From NCBI GenBank assembly GCA_017548985.1, contig JAFYYW010000009.1, positions 5,290 through 69,289 of the forward strand: a stretch of 64,000 nucleotides of DNA, written 5' to 3'. The notes below the pieces were generated by a model. It made no database searches. It saw only the letters and a list, made by a program, of their open reading frames with translations, and was not told the DNA's origin. Both the position numbers and the translations under genes were made by a program. This DNA comes from Bacteroidales bacterium (GTDB lineage: Bacteria > Bacteroidota > Bacteroidia > Bacteroidales > UBA932). Of this stretch, positions 1,153-17,396 are shown in pieces. Each line of letters opens with the position of its first letter. Positions within the stretch are counted from its first letter, which is position 1.

Positions 1153-3156
1153 TTAATTAGTTAATGAATCTACAAATATCGTGAGCGCCAACATGTCGGC
1201 GGCACCTCCGGGGGAGATACCCTCCGCATCGTAACGCTTTTTCATTTCTCTCAATCCTCCCTCGCTGAAATTATCCAGCAGGGCTTTCGCCTCCTCCTTC
1301 ACTTCCTGGGCTCTCTGATAACCAACCCTGTGAATAATGCAGGTGTCGTCCAGTGTGGACATTATCTTGAGCAACGTCTTCTGCAATGCAGCCGTCTTAT
1401 CTATCTCCGCTGTGCCGTCCGGGCCAGGCCGAGTCCATCCTCGCTCCGCTGCGGCTGAGTACGGCCTAAGCCCGGCGGCACCAGCGGAGTGGAAGAAGGG
1501 CAGCCAATCTTCAAAAAGAGGTTTGTAGCCTTCCCAGGCCAACTGTAGAGCACCCTTGACCCCGTGCTCTTTAACAGCTTTGGCACCATGGGAATCGTTA
1601 CCCGCAGCAAGCAAACCAGAAAGTTCAGCGATCCTTTCAGATAGTTCTGTAACCGTAAAACGTAAAGGACTATCAGTCAATATATTAGCAATTAGTGCGT
1701 GGTCATTATTCACCAGCCATATTTGCCTATTATCTTGATATTCATTTAGTTGCGAATCACGGGCAATTATCAGAGCCGCAATTGCGGCGAAGCCTAAGGC
1801 GAAAATCGCCCCGCGATAAGTGTTTACTCCCCGGGTATATTCCAGCACTTCCGCCTCAATCGCCTTTCCGAACTCTCTTAAAGAATCACCAGCGGCCTTC
1901 TGGCAGCCTGTCAAATCGCCAAGGATATGGAGATGGCGGATAAAGGAGCGGCGGATAACATCGATGCTGCCTTTCATCAGGGCATAGTCCATATCACTGT
2001 GAGCTCCATTGCTATCCTTGTCAACAAGGCCTGGCTTCACAGGAGTGTCAAGCTCTATCCTGAGTGACCTGGCCACCAGCTCAGCGACCAAATAAGGCCA
2101 CGTCGTCTGCGGCGTCATGACGACGGCGTTCCGGAAACTCCCATGTTCCAATGCCTTACGCACATCAGAAGCTTGAATATACCCGGCGAGATTGCCGTCA
2201 AGGGAAAGCCTTGACAGTTCGACAACCGATATTCCATAGGCCTGGAGAATCTCTTTCATGAGCTCGTTGTAACGGGCGGTCAGAGGGTCTGAAGGCTCGC
2301 TGCCGACAAAACGGACAGTCACTCCTAAAGACGGGGCGATGTGCCTGGCGAATAGATCGAGATCCAGTCTCATCTGGGTTTCGGCGGCTTCCGTGAGATC
2401 TTTAAGGAAATATGTCGGGAAGGTCGTCGCTGAAATCTGGTACTCACTGCCTTCCAAGACAGTGGCGAGACCCTCACAGCCACGACGTATCATCTCAAGC
2501 CGTTCCTCATACGGGAACAACGACACATCCTCCTTGACCGGAATCACAAACAACTTCCCTACCTGCCCAGAGGCCTTCTCAACCAGATACTTATGCCCCA
2601 GGGTGAACGGGTTGGCATTCATGATTATGACACCGGCAGTCGAAGGACAACCGATTGAATCCGGCCGATCAAATCCTGGCTTTGCCGCAGCCGAGCACGA
2701 CTTAAGATAATCCTCCAAACCATGACCGTTCTCCATCAGGATAGCGAGAGGAGCTTTCGCGATAATGTGGAAGCCGAGGCTGGTGAAAATGGCCTCATTC
2801 TCGGGTTTGGTGAAAACCTTGAGATTGGCTATACCCTTTGCGGAGGCATAAGCGATGATGTGGGAAACCAGCGGGGCGACAAGCCCTCTCGACCTGGCCG
2901 AAGCGACCACAGCGACACATTTGATGACATCTCCCGCAAGGCCGGCTCCGGCGACAATGGATCCGTCCCCGTCAAGGACAGAAAAATAATCGTCGACAAC
3001 TTCCAGACGCAAACCATTGGCCGTGAGGAAGTTCTCGACTTGTCTCCTGAATCGGGGAGAACTCAGCGGGATTCTCTGTATCTCTACTATGTTATCTTCT
3101 GTCTGCACCTTGTCGCAAGCTTTCCAATACTCCCGGTTCCGCCTGCTGTGGAACAA
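1153..3156 (-). CDS. citC-citG: Fusion of citrate lyase ligase CitC (N-terminal) and triphosphoribosyl-dephospho-CoA synthase CitG (C-terminal)
   Basis: GNAT-like N-terminus, then MNANPFTLGH and FPTYF (CitC), then KPGLVD..SNGAH.DMD and ISPGGAADMLA (CitG) in one 667-aa frame. The true start may be GTG at 3108, because the TTG at 3156 sits at the predicted transcription start. Confidence 0.9.
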   Translation of the reverse strand: MFHSRRNREYWKACDKVQTEDNIVEIQRIPLSSPRFRRQVENFLTANGLRLEVVDDYFSVLDGDGSIVAGAGLAGDVIKCVAVVASARSRGLVAPLVSHIIAYASAKGIANLKVFTKPENEAIFTSLGFHIIAKAPLAILMENGHGLEDYLKSCSAAAKPGFDRPDSIGCPSTAGVIIMNANPFTLGHKYLVEKASGQVGKLFVIPVKEDVSLFPYEERLEMIRRGCEGLATVLEGSEYQISATTFPTYFLKDLTEAAETQMRLDLDLFARHIAPSLGVTVRFVGSEPSDPLTARYNELMKEILQAYGISVVELSRLSLDGNLAGYIQASDVRKALEHGSFRNAVVMTPQTTWPYLVAELVARSLRIELDTPVKPGLVDKDSNGAHSDMDYALMKGSIDVIRRSFIRHLHILGDLTGCQKAAGDSLREFGKAIEAEVLEYTRGVNTYRGAIFALGFAAIAALIIARDSQLNEYQDNRQIWLVNNDHALIANILTDSPLRFTVTELSERIAELSGLLAAGNDSHGAKAVKEHGVKGALQLAWEGYKPLFEDWLPFFHSAGAAGLRPYSAAAERGWTRPGPDGTAEIDKTAALQKTLLKIMSTLDDTCIIHRVGYQRAQEVKEEAKALLDNFSEGGLREMKKRYDAEGISPGGAADMLALTIFVDSLTN
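1405..1489. repeat. REP-like long hairpin embedded in frame in the CitG domain
   Basis: Nested arms CTCCGCTG/CAGCGGAG (1405-1412/1482-1489), TGCCG(T)CCGGGC/GCCCGGCGGCA and AGGCCG/CGGCCT. The loop contains GC-GGA-GC on the minus strand. Confidence 0.7.
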
Positions 3157-3199: not shown

Positions 3200-3904
3200 T
3201 TATGATTTTAAATAAATATCAACCATTTGGTCGATTTTCGCAAGCAATTCTTCGGTTGTGTGAGACTTTGCTCTCATGCAATGCCTAACCTCGTTGCCAC
3301 ACAAAAGGCACTTCCTCGGCTCCAACCCCAAATCCTCACGCCCCAATGGTGCCGGTGAATACTTGGCGGCGGGAAGTCCCCGTACTCCCTGCGCTTCGCG
3401 CCCTATCCGGGTAAATGTCCGTCCGGGGACTTCCCGTCCGCCACTCAACGAAGTCTGTTCCGATTCAGATTCAAGGGATTCGGAGCGTAGCGACGCAGGG
3501 AGTTTGAGGGGTACGCCCCTCAATCCCCCTCGGGGGTGCAGGGGGGTGGAAGAGGATTTGGACGTGATCGTGACGATCACGTCCAAATCCATAAGGCGTC
3601 CGAGGGGGTGGGTGTCTTCGAGATGGCAGGCAAGGCGCTTGGCATCAAATGGAGACATGGGAACGAGGAAGAAGCCCTCATAACCGGTCTCCAAATCACG
3701 AAGCTCCTCTATTTCAACCGTATACGCCTCCCTGACAGCCTTAACCCCAGCTTCAGCTATCACCAAAGAACTTTTGTTCCTTTTAACCGGCCCGGGCAAT
3801 TGCACCGTGAGACACAAAAGCGAAAGGCCAGGATTGGCTTCCAGCAGCTCGCGCTGCCGCCGCACCCTGGCCTCCCGGCTCTCCAATATTTCTTCCAGAG
3901 TCAC
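3200..3904 (-). CDS. citX: Apo-citrate lyase phosphoribosyl-dephospho-CoA transferase CitX with an in-frame insertion of about 65-70 aa
   Basis: ILESREAR, HPLGRLMDLDV and LGREDLGLEPRKCLLC motifs. The extra segment lies between DLDVI and PLGRE. Confidence 0.9.
   Translation of the reverse strand: MTLEEILESREARVRRQRELLEANPGLSLLCLTVQLPGPVKRNKSSLVIAEAGVKAVREAYTVEIEELRDLETGYEGFFLVPMSPFDAKRLACHLEDTHPLGRLMDLDVIVTITSKSSSTPLHPRGGLRGVPLKLPASLRSESLESESEQTSLSGGREVPGRTFTRIGREAQGVRGLPAAKYSPAPLGREDLGLEPRKCLLCGNEVRHCMRAKSHTTEELLAKIDQMVDIYLKS
3365..3442. repeat. REP-like element, copy 1: 40-bp core (3384-3423) closed by a 17-18 bp stem
   Basis: Core ACTCCCTGCGCTTCGCGCCCTATCCGGGTAAATGTCCGTC is identical to 17065-17104. 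Arms are GGCGGCGGGAAGTCCCC and GGGGACTTCCCGTCCGCC. Confidence 0.85.
3482..3548. repeat. Second palindromic module inside the citX insertion
   Basis: GC-GTA-GC mini-hairpin; CGCAGGGAGT (3494-3503) is the inverse of core 3384-3393; TTGAGGGG-TACG-CCCCTCAA hairpin at 3504-3523; CCCC/GGGG stem. Confidence 0.7.
3554..3590. repeat. Perfect 18-bp inverted duplication of citX coding sequence
   Basis: GGATTTGGACGTGATCGT-G-ACGATCACGTCCAAATCC; the arms are exact reverse complements. Confidence 0.95.
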
Positions 3905-5323
3905 CTACTGGATGTTGTAGATCTTGTCAAGGACTTTGCCGTGGCGATCCATGACGATACCGACGACCTTGTCGCCGAATGGCAGAGGATCAGGCACACC
4001 GATCACACTTGTAGCCTTCGCGGCGAGATCGTGGATGTCCACAACCTTCAGCCCTGCCTCCTTGAGACGCTCAGCGATCTCGGGACGACGGGGGTTGACA
4101 GCTATTCCATATTCGGTGACAACCACATCGACCCCGGCGCCAGGAGTGATCAGAGTCGTCACTTTCGGGACGACGCAAGGGATACGTCCTCTCAGAAGAG
4201 GGCAAACGATGATTGACAAAGCGCTATCCTCGGCGGTGTCGGGATGGCCTCCCACAGCTCCGCGTATGATTCCGTCAGATCCGACGAGAACGTTCACATT
4301 GAAATCAACGTCAACTTCGAGGGCGGAGAGGATCACAATGTCAAGGGCGTGGACCGCTGAACCGGGATTATCGGCGCTGGCATATTCGACTGCGCTGACC
4401 TCCTGGTGGGTCTGGTCAGAGGCGATCGACTCAGCCGCGACCTTGTCAAACGACTGGACGTCAATCAGTTTGCCGATCAGGCCTTCCTCATGGAGCTTGA
4501 CCATGTGGGCAGTGATGCCACCGAGGGCGAAAGAAGCTTTGATTCCCTTCTCAAGCATGCTCTCCTTTATGTACTTCACGACAGCCAGCGAAGCTCCGCC
4601 GGTACCGGTCTGGATGGAGAAACCATCCTTGAAGTAACCGCTGTTGATCACGACCTGGGCGGCCTGCTGGGCAAGCAAAATGTCACGGGGATTCTTCGAG
4701 TCACGGATCGCTCCCGAAGATATCTTCGAGCTGTCACCCACGGAATCCACGATCACGACGGATTCGACATCGCAGGAAGAGATTGACTTGGGGTAATTAG
4801 GATAGGCCACGAGGTCGTCAGTCAGGACAACCACATGGTCGGCGTACTTTGCGTCCGGAAGCGCGTAACCAAGAGAGCCACAAATGGATTTGGCGTTCTC
4901 GCTGCGGGGGCAACCGGAAGCGTTACCCAACTCGTCGCAAGAGGAAGCTCCCAGGAAAGCGACATCAATGTGAAGCTCACCGTTGGCGATAGCGCTGCCC
5001 CTGCCACCATGGGAACGGAACACGACAGGCTCAGTCATAAGGCCATGGGATATCTCATTAGCCAGTTCACCGCGGAGACCCGAGGTGGAGATGCCGGTGA
5101 TGACGCCAGCCTTGATGTGCTCAATAAGCGGGGCGTGGACATCCGAGAGACTCGAGGCCGCGAGTTTGAGATCCTTGAAACCCATCTCAGCCAACTTGGC
5201 GACAACCAGGTTGACGACCTTGTCTCCACCGCGGAAATGATGGTGGAAAGATATGGTCATGCCATCCTTGAGGCCAGAGCGGCGGATGGCTTCCTCCAAA
5301 GAGACTACTTTAGTGTTTCTCAT
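3905..5323 (-). CDS. citF: Citrate lyase alpha subunit (citrate CoA-transferase)
   Basis: SGLKDGMTISFHHHFRGGD, FRSHGGR, QTGTGGAS and GGHPDTA motifs. Confidence 0.95.
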   Translation of the reverse strand: MRNTKVVSLEEAIRRSGLKDGMTISFHHHFRGGDKVVNLVVAKLAEMGFKDLKLAASSLSDVHAPLIEHIKAGVITGISTSGLRGELANEISHGLMTEPVVFRSHGGRGSAIANGELHIDVAFLGASSCDELGNASGCPRSENAKSICGSLGYALPDAKYADHVVVLTDDLVAYPNYPKSISSCDVESVVIVDSVGDSSKISSGAIRDSKNPRDILLAQQAAQVVINSGYFKDGFSIQTGTGGASLAVVKYIKESMLEKGIKASFALGGITAHMVKLHEEGLIGKLIDVQSFDKVAAESIASDQTHQEVSAVEYASADNPGSAVHALDIVILSALEVDVDFNVNVLVGSDGIIRGAVGGHPDTAEDSALSIIVCPLLRGRIPCVVPKVTTLITPGAGVDVVVTEYGIAVNPRRPEIAERLKEAGLKVVDIHDLAAKATSVIGVPDPLPFGDKVVGIVMDRHGKVLDKIYNIQ

Positions 5324-16232: not shown

Positions 16233-17396
16233 ATGAAAGCGTTCTTCCTAGCCTTTCTGGTGGTGGTGAGTGCCGCCACCCTTTACGTCGCCTGGCATAT
16301 CTGGCGGCTAACTCCGGCTAGTTGGTTCGTGAGGCTTATCGTTGTCGGAGCCTTCCTGCTCTGGACGGCCAGTTTCTTCTTCGGATTCTTCTTCCTGGAA
16401 AAGGTTCCCTTCAGGGCCGCGATCCCACTTTATCAGATTGGAAACACCTGGCTGATAGCGTTTTTGTACATATTCCTGGCCTTTTTCCTGTTAGATATCC
16501 TGTCCATTTGCGGGGCGCTGCCCAAAGGCTTCCTGAAAGAGTCATGGCCGGTGCTTGGCGGGATAGCTGGGGCGGTCACCCTTTTGCTCTGCCTCGGCAG
16601 TCTCCATTACCACCACAAGTACCGGGAAGAGCTGACGATCACCACTTCCAAGCCTCTGGAGAAACCTCTGACCGTGGTTATGGCTAGCGACCTCCATCTT
16701 GGCTATCACAACCGTCGGAAGGAACTGGGACGTTGGATTGACCTCTTCAACGCTGAGAATCCGGACCTGGTACTGTTTGGCGGGGACATTATCGACAGGA
16801 GCTTGAGGCCTGTCATCAGAGGTGACTATGCCGCCGAGTTCAAGCGGCTCAAGGCTCCAATCTGGAGTGTTTTGGGCAATCATGAATATTACAGCGACGT
16901 GGAACGCTCCGAGATGTTCTTCAAAGAAGCCGGAATCGGCTTGCTGAAAGACTGTTTCATAGACACTCTCGGAATCAGGATTGTCGGCCGCAATGACCGC
17001 TCATACCCCTGCCGCCCTGCGCTCTGGGAGATTCTTCCCGTTCCGGATGCAAGTCCTGCCGCCGACTCCCTGCGCTTCGCGCCCTATCCGGGTAAATGTC
17101 CGTCGGCGGCAGACTTGCCTCCGCAGCGACGGTTCACAATACTCCTGGATCACCAGCCATATAACTTGAAGGAGGCCGAAGAGGCTGGAATAGACTTCCA
17201 GTTCAGTGGCCACACCCACAGAGGCCAGGTATGGCCCATCTCCTGGATTACCGACAGGATGTACGAGAAATCGTGGGGGCATCTCCAAAGAGGAGACACC
17301 CGTTATTATGTCAGCTCAGGACTCGGGATTTGGGGCGCGAAGATCCGCATTGGCACCCGCTCGGAATATCTGGTGCTGCGTGTCAACAGCAAATAA
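16233..17396 (+). CDS. Membrane-anchored metallophosphoesterase (YkuE-like) with an in-frame palindromic insertion
   Basis: N-terminal TM helices; SDLHLG, GGDIID, LGNHE, DHQP and SGHTHRGQ. Confidence 0.9.
   Translation: MKAFFLAFLVVVSAATLYVAWHIWRLTPASWFVRLIVVGAFLLWTASFFFGFFFLEKVPFRAAIPLYQIGNTWLIAFLYIFLAFFLLDILSICGALPKGFLKESWPVLGGIAGAVTLLLCLGSLHYHHKYREELTITTSKPLEKPLTVVMASDLHLGYHNRRKELGRWIDLFNAENPDLVLFGGDIIDRSLRPVIRGDYAAEFKRLKAPIWSVLGNHEYYSDVERSEMFFKEAGIGLLKDCFIDTLGIRIVGRNDRSYPCRPALWEILPVPDASPAADSLRFAPYPGKCPSAADLPPQRRFTILLDHQPYNLKEAEEAGIDFQFSGHTHRGQVWPISWITDRMYEKSWGHLQRGDTRYYVSSGLGIWGAKIRIGTRSEYLVLRVNSK
17049..17118. repeat. REP-like element, copy 2: same 40-bp core (17065-17104) with a different stem
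   Basis: Arms GCAAGTCCTGCCGCCG and CGGCGGCAGACTTGC; core identical to 3384-3423. Confidence 0.85.

Follow-up and report, generated by a model that had tools for sequence, protein, structure and literature searches.

What kind of sequence can lie inside two unrelated genes of one genome with its centre unchanged in both and a different stem around it in each? The question is raised by a 64,000-nucleotide stretch of a Bacteroidales bacterium (assembly GCA_017548985.1, contig JAFYYW010000009.1, forward strand, positions 5,290 to 69,289), which we analysed over its full length and refer to as the window. A 40-mer, ACTCCCTGCGCTTCGCGCCCTATCCGGGTAAATGTCCGTC, matches the window exactly twice, at 3384-3423 and at 17065-17104, both times on the + strand. 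Given a chance expectation of 0 matches in 100 shuffles of the window, the two identical 40-bp cores that a preliminary description of this DNA had pointed out are borne out. Each core forms the tip of an imperfect hairpin, which we call family 1; copy 1 lies in citX and copy 2 in a phosphoesterase gene (Table 1). On balance, the evidence leans modestly towards family 1 being a lineage-restricted, small palindromic DNA repeat of the kind represented by Rickettsia palindromic elements (RPEs), repetitive extragenic palindromic (REP) sequences and MITEs (miniature transposable elements with inverted repeats), with a tip constrained in sequence and arms constrained in pairing, and recognized by its shape together with its tip sequence.

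Anatomy of the hairpin

The stems of the two window copies are unrelated in sequence and have one unpaired base apiece, which is how the preliminary description had drawn them: copy 1 (3365-3442) is closed by GGCGG-CGGGAAGTCCCCG / CGGGGACTTCCCG-T-CCGCC, and copy 2 (17049-17118) by GCAAGTC-C-TGCCGCC / GGCGGCAGACTTGC. Both copies fold far better than their shuffles, whether as RNA on either strand (z = -5.4 to -7.8) or as DNA (z = -5.5 and -5.1). The citX open reading frame (ORF) reads copy 1 antisense as ...GRTFTRIGREAQGV..., also given as ...GRTFTRIGREAQGVRG..., and its Pfam CitX match is broken into two stretches; the Metallophos ORF reads copy 2 sense as ...DSLRFAPYPGKCP.... The ORFs and Pfam matches thus agree with the reading frames proposed earlier, antisense in citX and sense in the phosphoesterase gene.

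As a description of the family, the 40-bp core proved too long. It is exact in both window copies, but the part kept family-wide is a centre of 29 nt only, CTGCGCTTCGCGCCCTATCCGGGTAAATG, at 3389-3417 and 17070-17098 in the window, with a semi-variable junction of 5-6 nt on either side. Sixteen centre positions are invariant among the 90 copies from which we built a covariance model, R1, and most of the variation falls at five positions. Two mini-hairpins, CGC-TTC-GCG and CCC-TATCC-GGG, can form within the centre; the first of these reads GCGAAGC on the opposite strand, so that the stable mini-hairpin motif reported within the core is indeed present, on the core's minus strand. Pairing of the first mini-hairpin is supported because both subtypes in which it is lengthened carry complementary insertions, CGCGC/GCGCG in one subtype (type B) and TCGC/GCGA in a variant known from the relative genome G668 and from one copy of the window's own genome.

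The centre is closed by a covarying pair (C-G in 44 copies, G-C in 28), outward of which lie a 2x2 TC/TC internal loop and then arms of 15-27 bp. These arms differ at every locus of the window's genome, and their composition tends to track context, being AT-rich in some intergenic copies and GC-rich in genes. All 10 of the 10 inner arm pairs vary on both sides, 87% of arm cells are paired as against ~40% when the partner is slid, and the arm covariation score is 0.444 versus 0.118, a level reached by none of 500 shuffles. The other main subtype (type A) has a one-base bulge on the 5' arm in ~42% of copies, 13-19 nt from the centre, and on the 3' arm in 22%, slightly further out; the identity of the bulged base is not conserved among type A copies.

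Family size and host range

BLAST and model R1, used side by side for copy counts, find 16 family-1 copies in the 2.59-Mb genome of the window (G000; other G numbers denote relative genomes and L numbers element loci). Their scores are bimodal, with 13 intact copies (66-77 bits) set against 3 decayed ones (45 bits for two of them, 23 bits for the third). Scanning 185,579 species genomes for the exact pattern gave more than 115 stretches, nearly all of them in metagenome-assembled genomes (MAGs) of uncultured gut or rumen Bacteroidales, and 141 distinct family-1 copies with a unit length of 75-90 bp were collected from the scanned MAGs. The window copies therefore belong, as had been proposed, to an uncharacterized multi-copy palindromic family with a conserved loop and a variable stem, which counts 16 copies in this genome and more than 140 in relatives.

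The host range is narrow. Of 401 genomes from the genus to which G000 belongs, R1 finds the element in 37, or ~9% of species, several of which have at least 14 copies. Across the order, as sampled by 400 genomes from 236 genera, it is confined to one genus, and the other 235 genera gave no family-1 match. No family-1 match was found in the phage, plasmid and IMG/VR collections either, and a phage or plasmid origin was dropped for that reason. Some element-bearing contigs (L062, L067, L073 and L094) come from MAGs binned as Lachnospiraceae or Methanomethylophilaceae; because the genus range is otherwise strict, these are probably mis-binned Bacteroidales contigs.

Insertion into genes and probable translation

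Relative to orthologues, the whole hairpin, arms included, is an insertion. Homologues of the phosphoesterase from relatives and metagenomes have ~25 residues fewer exactly at the place of copy 2, and DNA alignment shows that the allele of G032 is without 78 nt comprising both arms and the centre. The second insert, placed at 17049-17118 in the preliminary description, is thus an insertion as claimed, although its length against this closest empty allele is 78 nt (17047-17124) and not 70. Similarly, an intergenic copy on contig 15 of G000 is a clean 75-nt insertion relative to G032. Hairpin-free alleles do therefore exist at orthologous sites, as in G032 without copy 2, and with 16 copies in one genome and more than 140 elsewhere the family is far from being a matter of two window copies with no empty sites to compare.

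Of 129 well-formed copies, 73 (57%) are entirely contained in ORFs that run for 150 aa or more without a stop, a share made up of 69 of 96 type A and 4 of 33 type B copies. Across the three frames, these in-ORF copies are distributed 28/0/15 in the sense orientation and 7/10/13 in the antisense orientation. The sense frame containing TAA/TGA is used by none of the 43 sense copies, and the antisense frame with a TAG is occupied only by copies with an A-to-G variant that abolishes the stop. Were the insert taken out of the RNA, the unused stop frame should hold a third of the sense copies, and the chance of finding it empty would be (2/3)^43, or ~3e-8. The emptiness of this frame argues that the element is read through, and from frame use we judge that in-gene hairpins are most probably translated and not removed. 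Ribosomal bypass or RNA excision of the insert was ruled out because stop-containing frames are unoccupied, and conservation at the protein level because five frames are in use. Frame disruption at the rate expected by chance is therefore not what genic copies display (the TAA/TGA frame holds none of the 43 sense copies), and the earlier suggestion that the element can be read in both orientations as extra protein loops holds for 43 sense and 30 antisense in-ORF copies.

The sites occupied by in-gene copies are permissive ones, in variable protein loops. In an AlphaFold2 model of the phosphoesterase, with a mean predicted local distance difference test (pLDDT) score of 85.7, the sole segment below 50 is residues 272-297, which is the insert, and the model thus predicts it to be a disordered loop.

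Evolution at orthologous sites

A first comparison of 104 locus pairs, in which flanks were 85%, arms 70-73% and core 96% identical, was biased because the loci had been retrieved with the core itself. For an unbiased comparison, the sites of G000 copies were located in eight relatives by their flanks only and scored for any content; the orthologous comparisons draw on MAG genomes, which are not phylogenetically independent. At the filled sites located in this way, an intact family-1 element was present in 8 of 9 cases in G258 and again in 8 of 9 in G174. G174 is empty at two further G000 sites, and G366 and G032 are without family 1 at these sites.

Over 14 flank-defined comparisons, identity is 97.0% in the centre (394/406) and 71.6% in the arms (441/616). 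The flanks provide a yardstick: codon positions 1 and 2 are 82-99% identical overall (90-98% in the G258 and G174 pairs), and codon position 3 is 56-77% identical (68-76% in the same pairs). The arms thus drift at about the neutral rate yet stay paired by compensated substitutions, and the centre appears, by this sequence measure, to be held as tightly as the codon positions that determine amino acids. G284 and G334, with flanks merely 74-80% identical, have kept copies of 73-78 bits at shared sites. Within G000 itself, the per-base load is 0.029 for unpaired stem positions versus 0.019 for deviation of the core from consensus. The citX site illustrates the contrast, its arms reading CGGGAAGTCCCCG/CGGGGACTTCCCG in G000 versus CAAAAGTCCCTCCG/CAGAGGGACTTTTG in G258, with the core identical and the arm changes compensated. 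Near-identical citX-type arms (GGCGGGAAGTCCCCG) are also found in an unrelated gene of G174 and L109 (site 1 of G000 versus site 5 of G174), and it follows that the element carries its arms along and does not build them from the target.

The element also turns over in place. Of 104 locus pairs, 36 have it turned round with respect to the flanks, as do 3 of 16 orthologues defined by their flanks, which amounts to roughly a fifth to a third of orthologous comparisons. In type B inversions the arms stay where they are and the centre alone is turned; in type A inversions the asymmetric bulge moves with the centre and the outer arm stays, a pattern seen between L194 and L196 (at the phosphoesterase site), between contig 36 of G000 and L076, and between G000 and G174 (at three sites). 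Alleles that look empty are often deletions retaining part of one arm: in L300 the left arm runs, across a direct repeat of CCTCCG, into the outer right arm, and the deleted allele P0014 retains TTTGCCTCCG. Three clades, within each of which sequences outside the phosphoesterase loop are 95-98% identical, hold '+', '-', deleted and 'other repeat' alleles at that loop, and these states are interspersed in the gene tree. Both orientations are thus seen between strains. In a 97.6%-identical background, '+' and '-' alleles differ throughout the arms and the adjoining loop, and the '-' loop is common to clades with flanks only ~81% identical; part of the pattern therefore reflects old alleles swapped by recombination and not flips of recent date. 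In a 94%-identical relative, this loop keeps its orientation and an almost unchanged peptide. In-place inversions had been overlooked in the preliminary description, as had two other points: how strongly orthologous sites conserve the core, and that the window contains a second hairpin family (Table 1).

One intergenic site upstream of the window, on contig 5 of G000 (2845-2971), has family-1 hairpins in G000, G258 and G174 with unrelated arms, GC-rich in G000 and G258 and AT-rich in G174. In L294 and L299, orthologues that lack the element, the site is taken by a plain hairpin that resembles a terminator and has a T run after it.

What kind of element is it?

Several features of the copies bear on whether the hairpin acts as DNA or as RNA. 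Stem mismatches comprise 75 G.T and 84 A.C, which is no RNA wobble signature on either strand; copies are oriented sense to their host ORF 43 times and antisense 30 times; and orientation relative to local GC skew divides 53 versus 42, a split that a sign test does not find significant, although the same values give p = 0.02 in a Wilcoxon test. A replication-strand bias by way of GC skew was dropped on that sign-test result, with the Wilcoxon p of 0.02 noted. Because there is no wobble bias, near-equal orientation and no clear link to skew, and because inversions occur in place, we favour a DNA-level structure over an RNA motif; such a structure could be a cruciform or a hairpin formed in single-stranded DNA. 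A cruciform would fit the indifference to orientation because it displays both strands.

We therefore picture a palindromic repeat that acts at the DNA level in one of these folded forms and whose shape and tip sequence would be read by a putative trans-acting protein. Such recognition, whether it serves mobilization, protection or a host use, may be what keeps the centre constant. Inversion and homogenization of the arms are most simply accounted for by strand switching or recombination between the arms, which would call for no dedicated invertase, and loss proceeds by deletions that leave part of an arm behind. Strand switching or recombination between arms is a mechanism known from quasi-palindromes and chloroplast hairpins, and recognition by shape and tip sequence has precedents in HUH transposases, which act in this way on REP or IS200/IS605 hairpins, and in integron integrases, whose substrates are folded attC sites.

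A number of observations weigh against a mobile palindromic repeat recognized in this way. We did not find a transposase, recombinase or other partner gene. No conserved motif marks the feet of the arms, where positional information is at most 0.12 bit (128 copies, with arm ends set algorithmically). Target-site duplications did not show up, direct repeats being no commoner than with shuffled partners when boundaries are estimated and sites hypervariable; alignments of filled and empty alleles likewise have no sharp boundaries, the sites being hypervariable loops. No arms are common to any two G000 copies, and therefore no recent transposition is visible in that genome; the sole cross-site arm identity is the one between the citX site of G000 and another gene in G174 and L109. 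By nearest-neighbour DNA parameters the centre by itself folds no better than its shuffles (z = -0.8 and -0.3), and its conservation therefore concerns sequence and not stability alone. Finally, a centre that remains at 97% while third positions fall to ~70% should not be expected of a purely selfish element. Possible sources of this constancy are selection at each site, conversion, or faster loss of damaged copies.

With distinctly less confidence, we entertain the possibility that family 1 is a functional structured DNA element, its three-way-junction tip and paired arms being under purifying selection locus by locus, as strong as that acting on codon positions that determine amino acids and indifferent to frame, strand and orientation, and its hairpin or cruciform being read by a dedicated protein. 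The same putative protein-hairpin system would then drive the in-place inversions and the rapid turnover of alleles among near-identical strains, and family 2, with a conserved centre of its own, would be a parallel member. A shade less likely again is a structured DNA site that the host has retained, or domesticated, under per-locus purifying selection, with insertion into genes incidental; it might, for example, be bound by a protein with an architectural, topological or replication/repair role, in line with proposals for REP sequences and bacterial interspersed mosaic elements (BIMEs) with gyrase or IHF. That the core, whatever its frame and orientation, is conserved like codon positions 1 and 2 of housekeeping enzymes, with paired arms changing at the third-position rate, fits such a site well, as do the intact copies (73-78 bits) at shared sites despite flanks of 74-80% and the bimodal scores (13 intact versus 3 decayed); orientation indifference, too, suits a cruciform. 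It is harder to see why a host site should be present in only 9% of the species of the genus, with close relatives such as G032 and G366 thriving with none or one, or why alleles with and without it should coexist in strains 95-98% identical. The ~14 sites per genome lie in unrelated places with no positional logic, loss is frequent, and the other hairpin family can hold the same site.

An RNA motif seems improbable to us. Conserved junction nucleotides with a covarying closing stem are a classic signature of structured RNA, and a cis-acting three-way junction, a small ribozyme or a site for protein binding, embedded in mRNAs and in transcripts from intergenic regions, would account for a closing stem that covaries around an invariant core with two small hairpins, for length changes in the first mini-hairpin that preserve its pairing, and for the strong RNA folding of the window copies. 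Yet the stems have no excess of G.U over A.C, sense and antisense copies are about equally frequent, orientation flips at fixed sites, and the frame statistics are those of an element that is translated and not removed. By inspection, no Bacteroidetes-type promoter motif is evident in the element. Searches against Rfam 15 gave only tRNAs for the window and 12 loci at the gathering score, and only meaningless miRNA-hairpin matches for the element at E up to 10, so that no family is assigned even at that threshold.

Slightly more doubtful still is a programmed intragenic inverton, in which a site-specific recombinase would flip the hairpin within populations and so give each host protein two loop isoforms. 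Intragenic invertons are documented in Bacteroides (PMC10028968), and the core does occur in both orientations between in-place arms at one site; each of the three clades that are 95-98% identical outside the phosphoesterase loop has both orientations, and the frame is open either way. However, the '+' and '-' alleles in the 97.6% background are no clean flip and look like old recombined alleles, the 94%-identical relative has the same orientation, a unit of at most 80 bp between locus-specific arms would be a poor substrate for a sequence-specific invertase, and the recoded peptide is, in the AlphaFold2 model, a disordered loop. The idea that the loop alone is mobile and its stems are templated anew from the target at each insertion, which builds on the templated stems suggested in the preliminary description, is very unlikely indeed: arms do differ at every locus of the genome and tend to follow local composition, but element-free orthologues are without both arms, near-identical arms (GGCGGGAAGTCCCCG) stand at two unrelated genes, the arms at single sites are inherited and homologous, diverging gradually, with compensation and in step with the flanks, asymmetric bulges are passed on and, where the core is inverted, go with it, and deletions keep pieces of arm.

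Neighbouring repeats

Table 1. Positions of the family-1 hairpins, their host genes and other repeats in the window
Feature	Position	Strand	Details
Family-1 hairpin, copy 1	3365..3442	+	antisense to citX; model R1 70.8 bits
Parts of copy 1	5' arm 3365-3385; junction TCC 3386-3388; core 3389-3417; junction TCC 3418-3420; 3' arm 3421-3442	+	family-1 anatomy
Family-1 hairpin, copy 2	17047..17124	+	sense in phosphoesterase gene; model R1 76.4 bits
Parts of copy 2	5' arm 17049-17066; core 17070-17098; 3' arm 17102-17118	+	family-1 anatomy
Host gene citX (apo-citrate lyase phosphoribosyl-dephospho-CoA transferase)	3200..3904	-	234 aa; Pfam CitX 1.4e-41
Host gene, membrane-anchored calcineurin-like metallophosphoesterase	16233..17396	+	387 aa; Metallophos Pfam match
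Family-2 hairpin	1405..1489	-	core TTAGGCCGTACTCAGCCGCAGCGGAGCGAGGATGGACTCGGCC (43-nt centre); in frame in citC-citG fusion ORF 1153-3156; z = -4.8
Third small repeat, beside copy 1 in citX	3457..3547	-	CTCCCTGCGTCGCTACGCTCCGAAT..., 'LPASLRSE'; kept in G258

Other repeats accompany family 1 in the window and beyond. Family 2 also has complementary arms around a centre and numbers at least 13 copies in G000; its host ORF in the window matches Pfam Citrate_ly_lig and CitG. In G258, G174, G366 and G032, family 2 occupies what in G000 is a family-1 site (contig 19, 38532). The third repeat occurs twice in the genome, its second copy being on contig 32, and contains the hairpins GAGGGG-TACG-CCCCTC and CCCCCGAGGGGG. 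It has ACTCCCTGCG in common with the 5' edge of the 40-mer, and together with the hairpin it adds roughly 50 extra residues to CitX. A further short repeat, GTCATYCTGAGCGAAGCGAAGRATCT, is present in about 15 copies on contigs 33, 19, 3, 17, 1, 24, 28 and 32 of G000 and also at L201, L202 and L235; it reads VILSEAKDL, or DSSLRSE-stop on the other strand, and CGCTTCGC is common to it and the core. This repeat adjoins some family-1 copies and takes the hairpin's place at the phosphoesterase loop in some strains.

Type B copies are mostly intergenic and lie inside a conserved, multi-copy stretch of ~1.2 kb (L089, 2290-3458), found also at L053, L095, L096, L120, L045, L072, L033 and other loci. 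The stretch, which G000 lacks, has no ORF longer than 74 aa and no Rfam match and is situated within a few hundred bases of tRNA genes; a large non-coding RNA and a leftover of some larger element are both conceivable explanations. Long ORFs also contain tandem arrays in which the centre and right arm are repeated head to tail (L047, 6183-6400; L044, L080 and L102), the L047 array having three units with a 60-nt period.

Comparison with known systems

The closest parallel in behaviour is with RPEs, reportedly described by Ogata et al. in 2000. These small repeats very often lie in frame in unrelated metabolic genes and are translated as tolerated loops (PMC10969869). Palindromic repeats read inside genes have a history going back to them, and comparable ones continue to be met with in rumen Bacteroidales. 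Like them, family 1 is multi-copy, scattered, in frame in unrelated genes at tolerated loops and absent from orthologues. RPEs, however, are about 100-150 bp long, are conserved over their full length within each family and encode a family-specific peptide; family 1 belongs to a different host phylum, Bacteroidota, keeps only its central 29 nt, leaves its arms free so long as they pair, uses four to five of the six frames and is inverted in place. The analogy, as we read it, is thus one of behaviour and not of architecture.

REP sequences and BIMEs, with their REP-associated tyrosine transposases (RAYTs, of the HUH Y1 type), are short GC-rich imperfect palindromes thought to be recognized in folded form, and translated intragenic REPs have been described (PMC2817692, PMC3733652). 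Family 1 resembles them in being a hairpin with unpaired bases, and the CCGGATAGGGCG..AAGC of its core recalls enterobacterial REPs (CCGGATAAGGCGAAGC), a likeness we take as a lead only. It differs in conserving the loop instead of the stem, in having ~14 copies and not hundreds, in being intragenic in 57% of cases and in having no GTAG or CGTC tag at the foot: among 128 copies, GTAG stands at either arm foot in at most 3 and CGTC in at most 10. The link to a RAYT or other HUH transposase that had been suggested earlier found no support, for a search for Y1_Tnp gave weak partial PF01797 matches only (E ~1e-8), in ORFs of 300-370 aa on contigs without copies; these matches are equally frequent in element-positive and element-negative genomes and none adjoins a copy, and the association was ruled out on this lack of correlation and adjacency. 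In comparison with MITEs, the arm ends of family 1 are not conserved and there is no excess of direct repeats, as judged from estimated boundaries at hypervariable insertion sites.

The attC sites of integrons offer a structural parallel, since their stem sequence is free and their structure is kept, and since attC works as a folded single strand with extrahelical bases. Unlike attC, which conserves the R''/R' boxes at its base and varies its terminal loop, family 1 conserves the opposite part; the boxes (RYYYAAC / GTTRRRY) occur at either foot in at most 2 of 128 copies, copies lie inside genes, and there are no cassette arrays. The intragenic invertons of gut Bacteroides (PMC10028968) share with family 1 a segment that lies between inverted repeats in both orientations and recodes a protein. 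They are locus-specific and are switched by invertases within populations, whereas family 1 has one core at all loci, a unit of at most 80 bp and polymorphism between strains only. Small hairpin-loop inversions are known in chloroplast DNA as well. Strains otherwise 95-98% identical can differ in whether an 80-bp hairpin within an essential enzyme gene is inverted, deleted or replaced, which makes these hairpins a source of variation in protein loops, and of annotation and binning artefacts in gut metagenomes.

Set beside these systems, family 1 stands out for its reversed architecture, with a constant tip on free, covarying stems, which implies recognition of folded DNA by shape and loop sequence and provides more than 140 natural stem variants with which such recognition can be tested. 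The contrast measured at orthologous sites (centre 97%, arms 72%, third positions ~70%) is not predicted by the simple decay of selfish DNA, and the question of whether such a repeat has a function therefore becomes a testable one.

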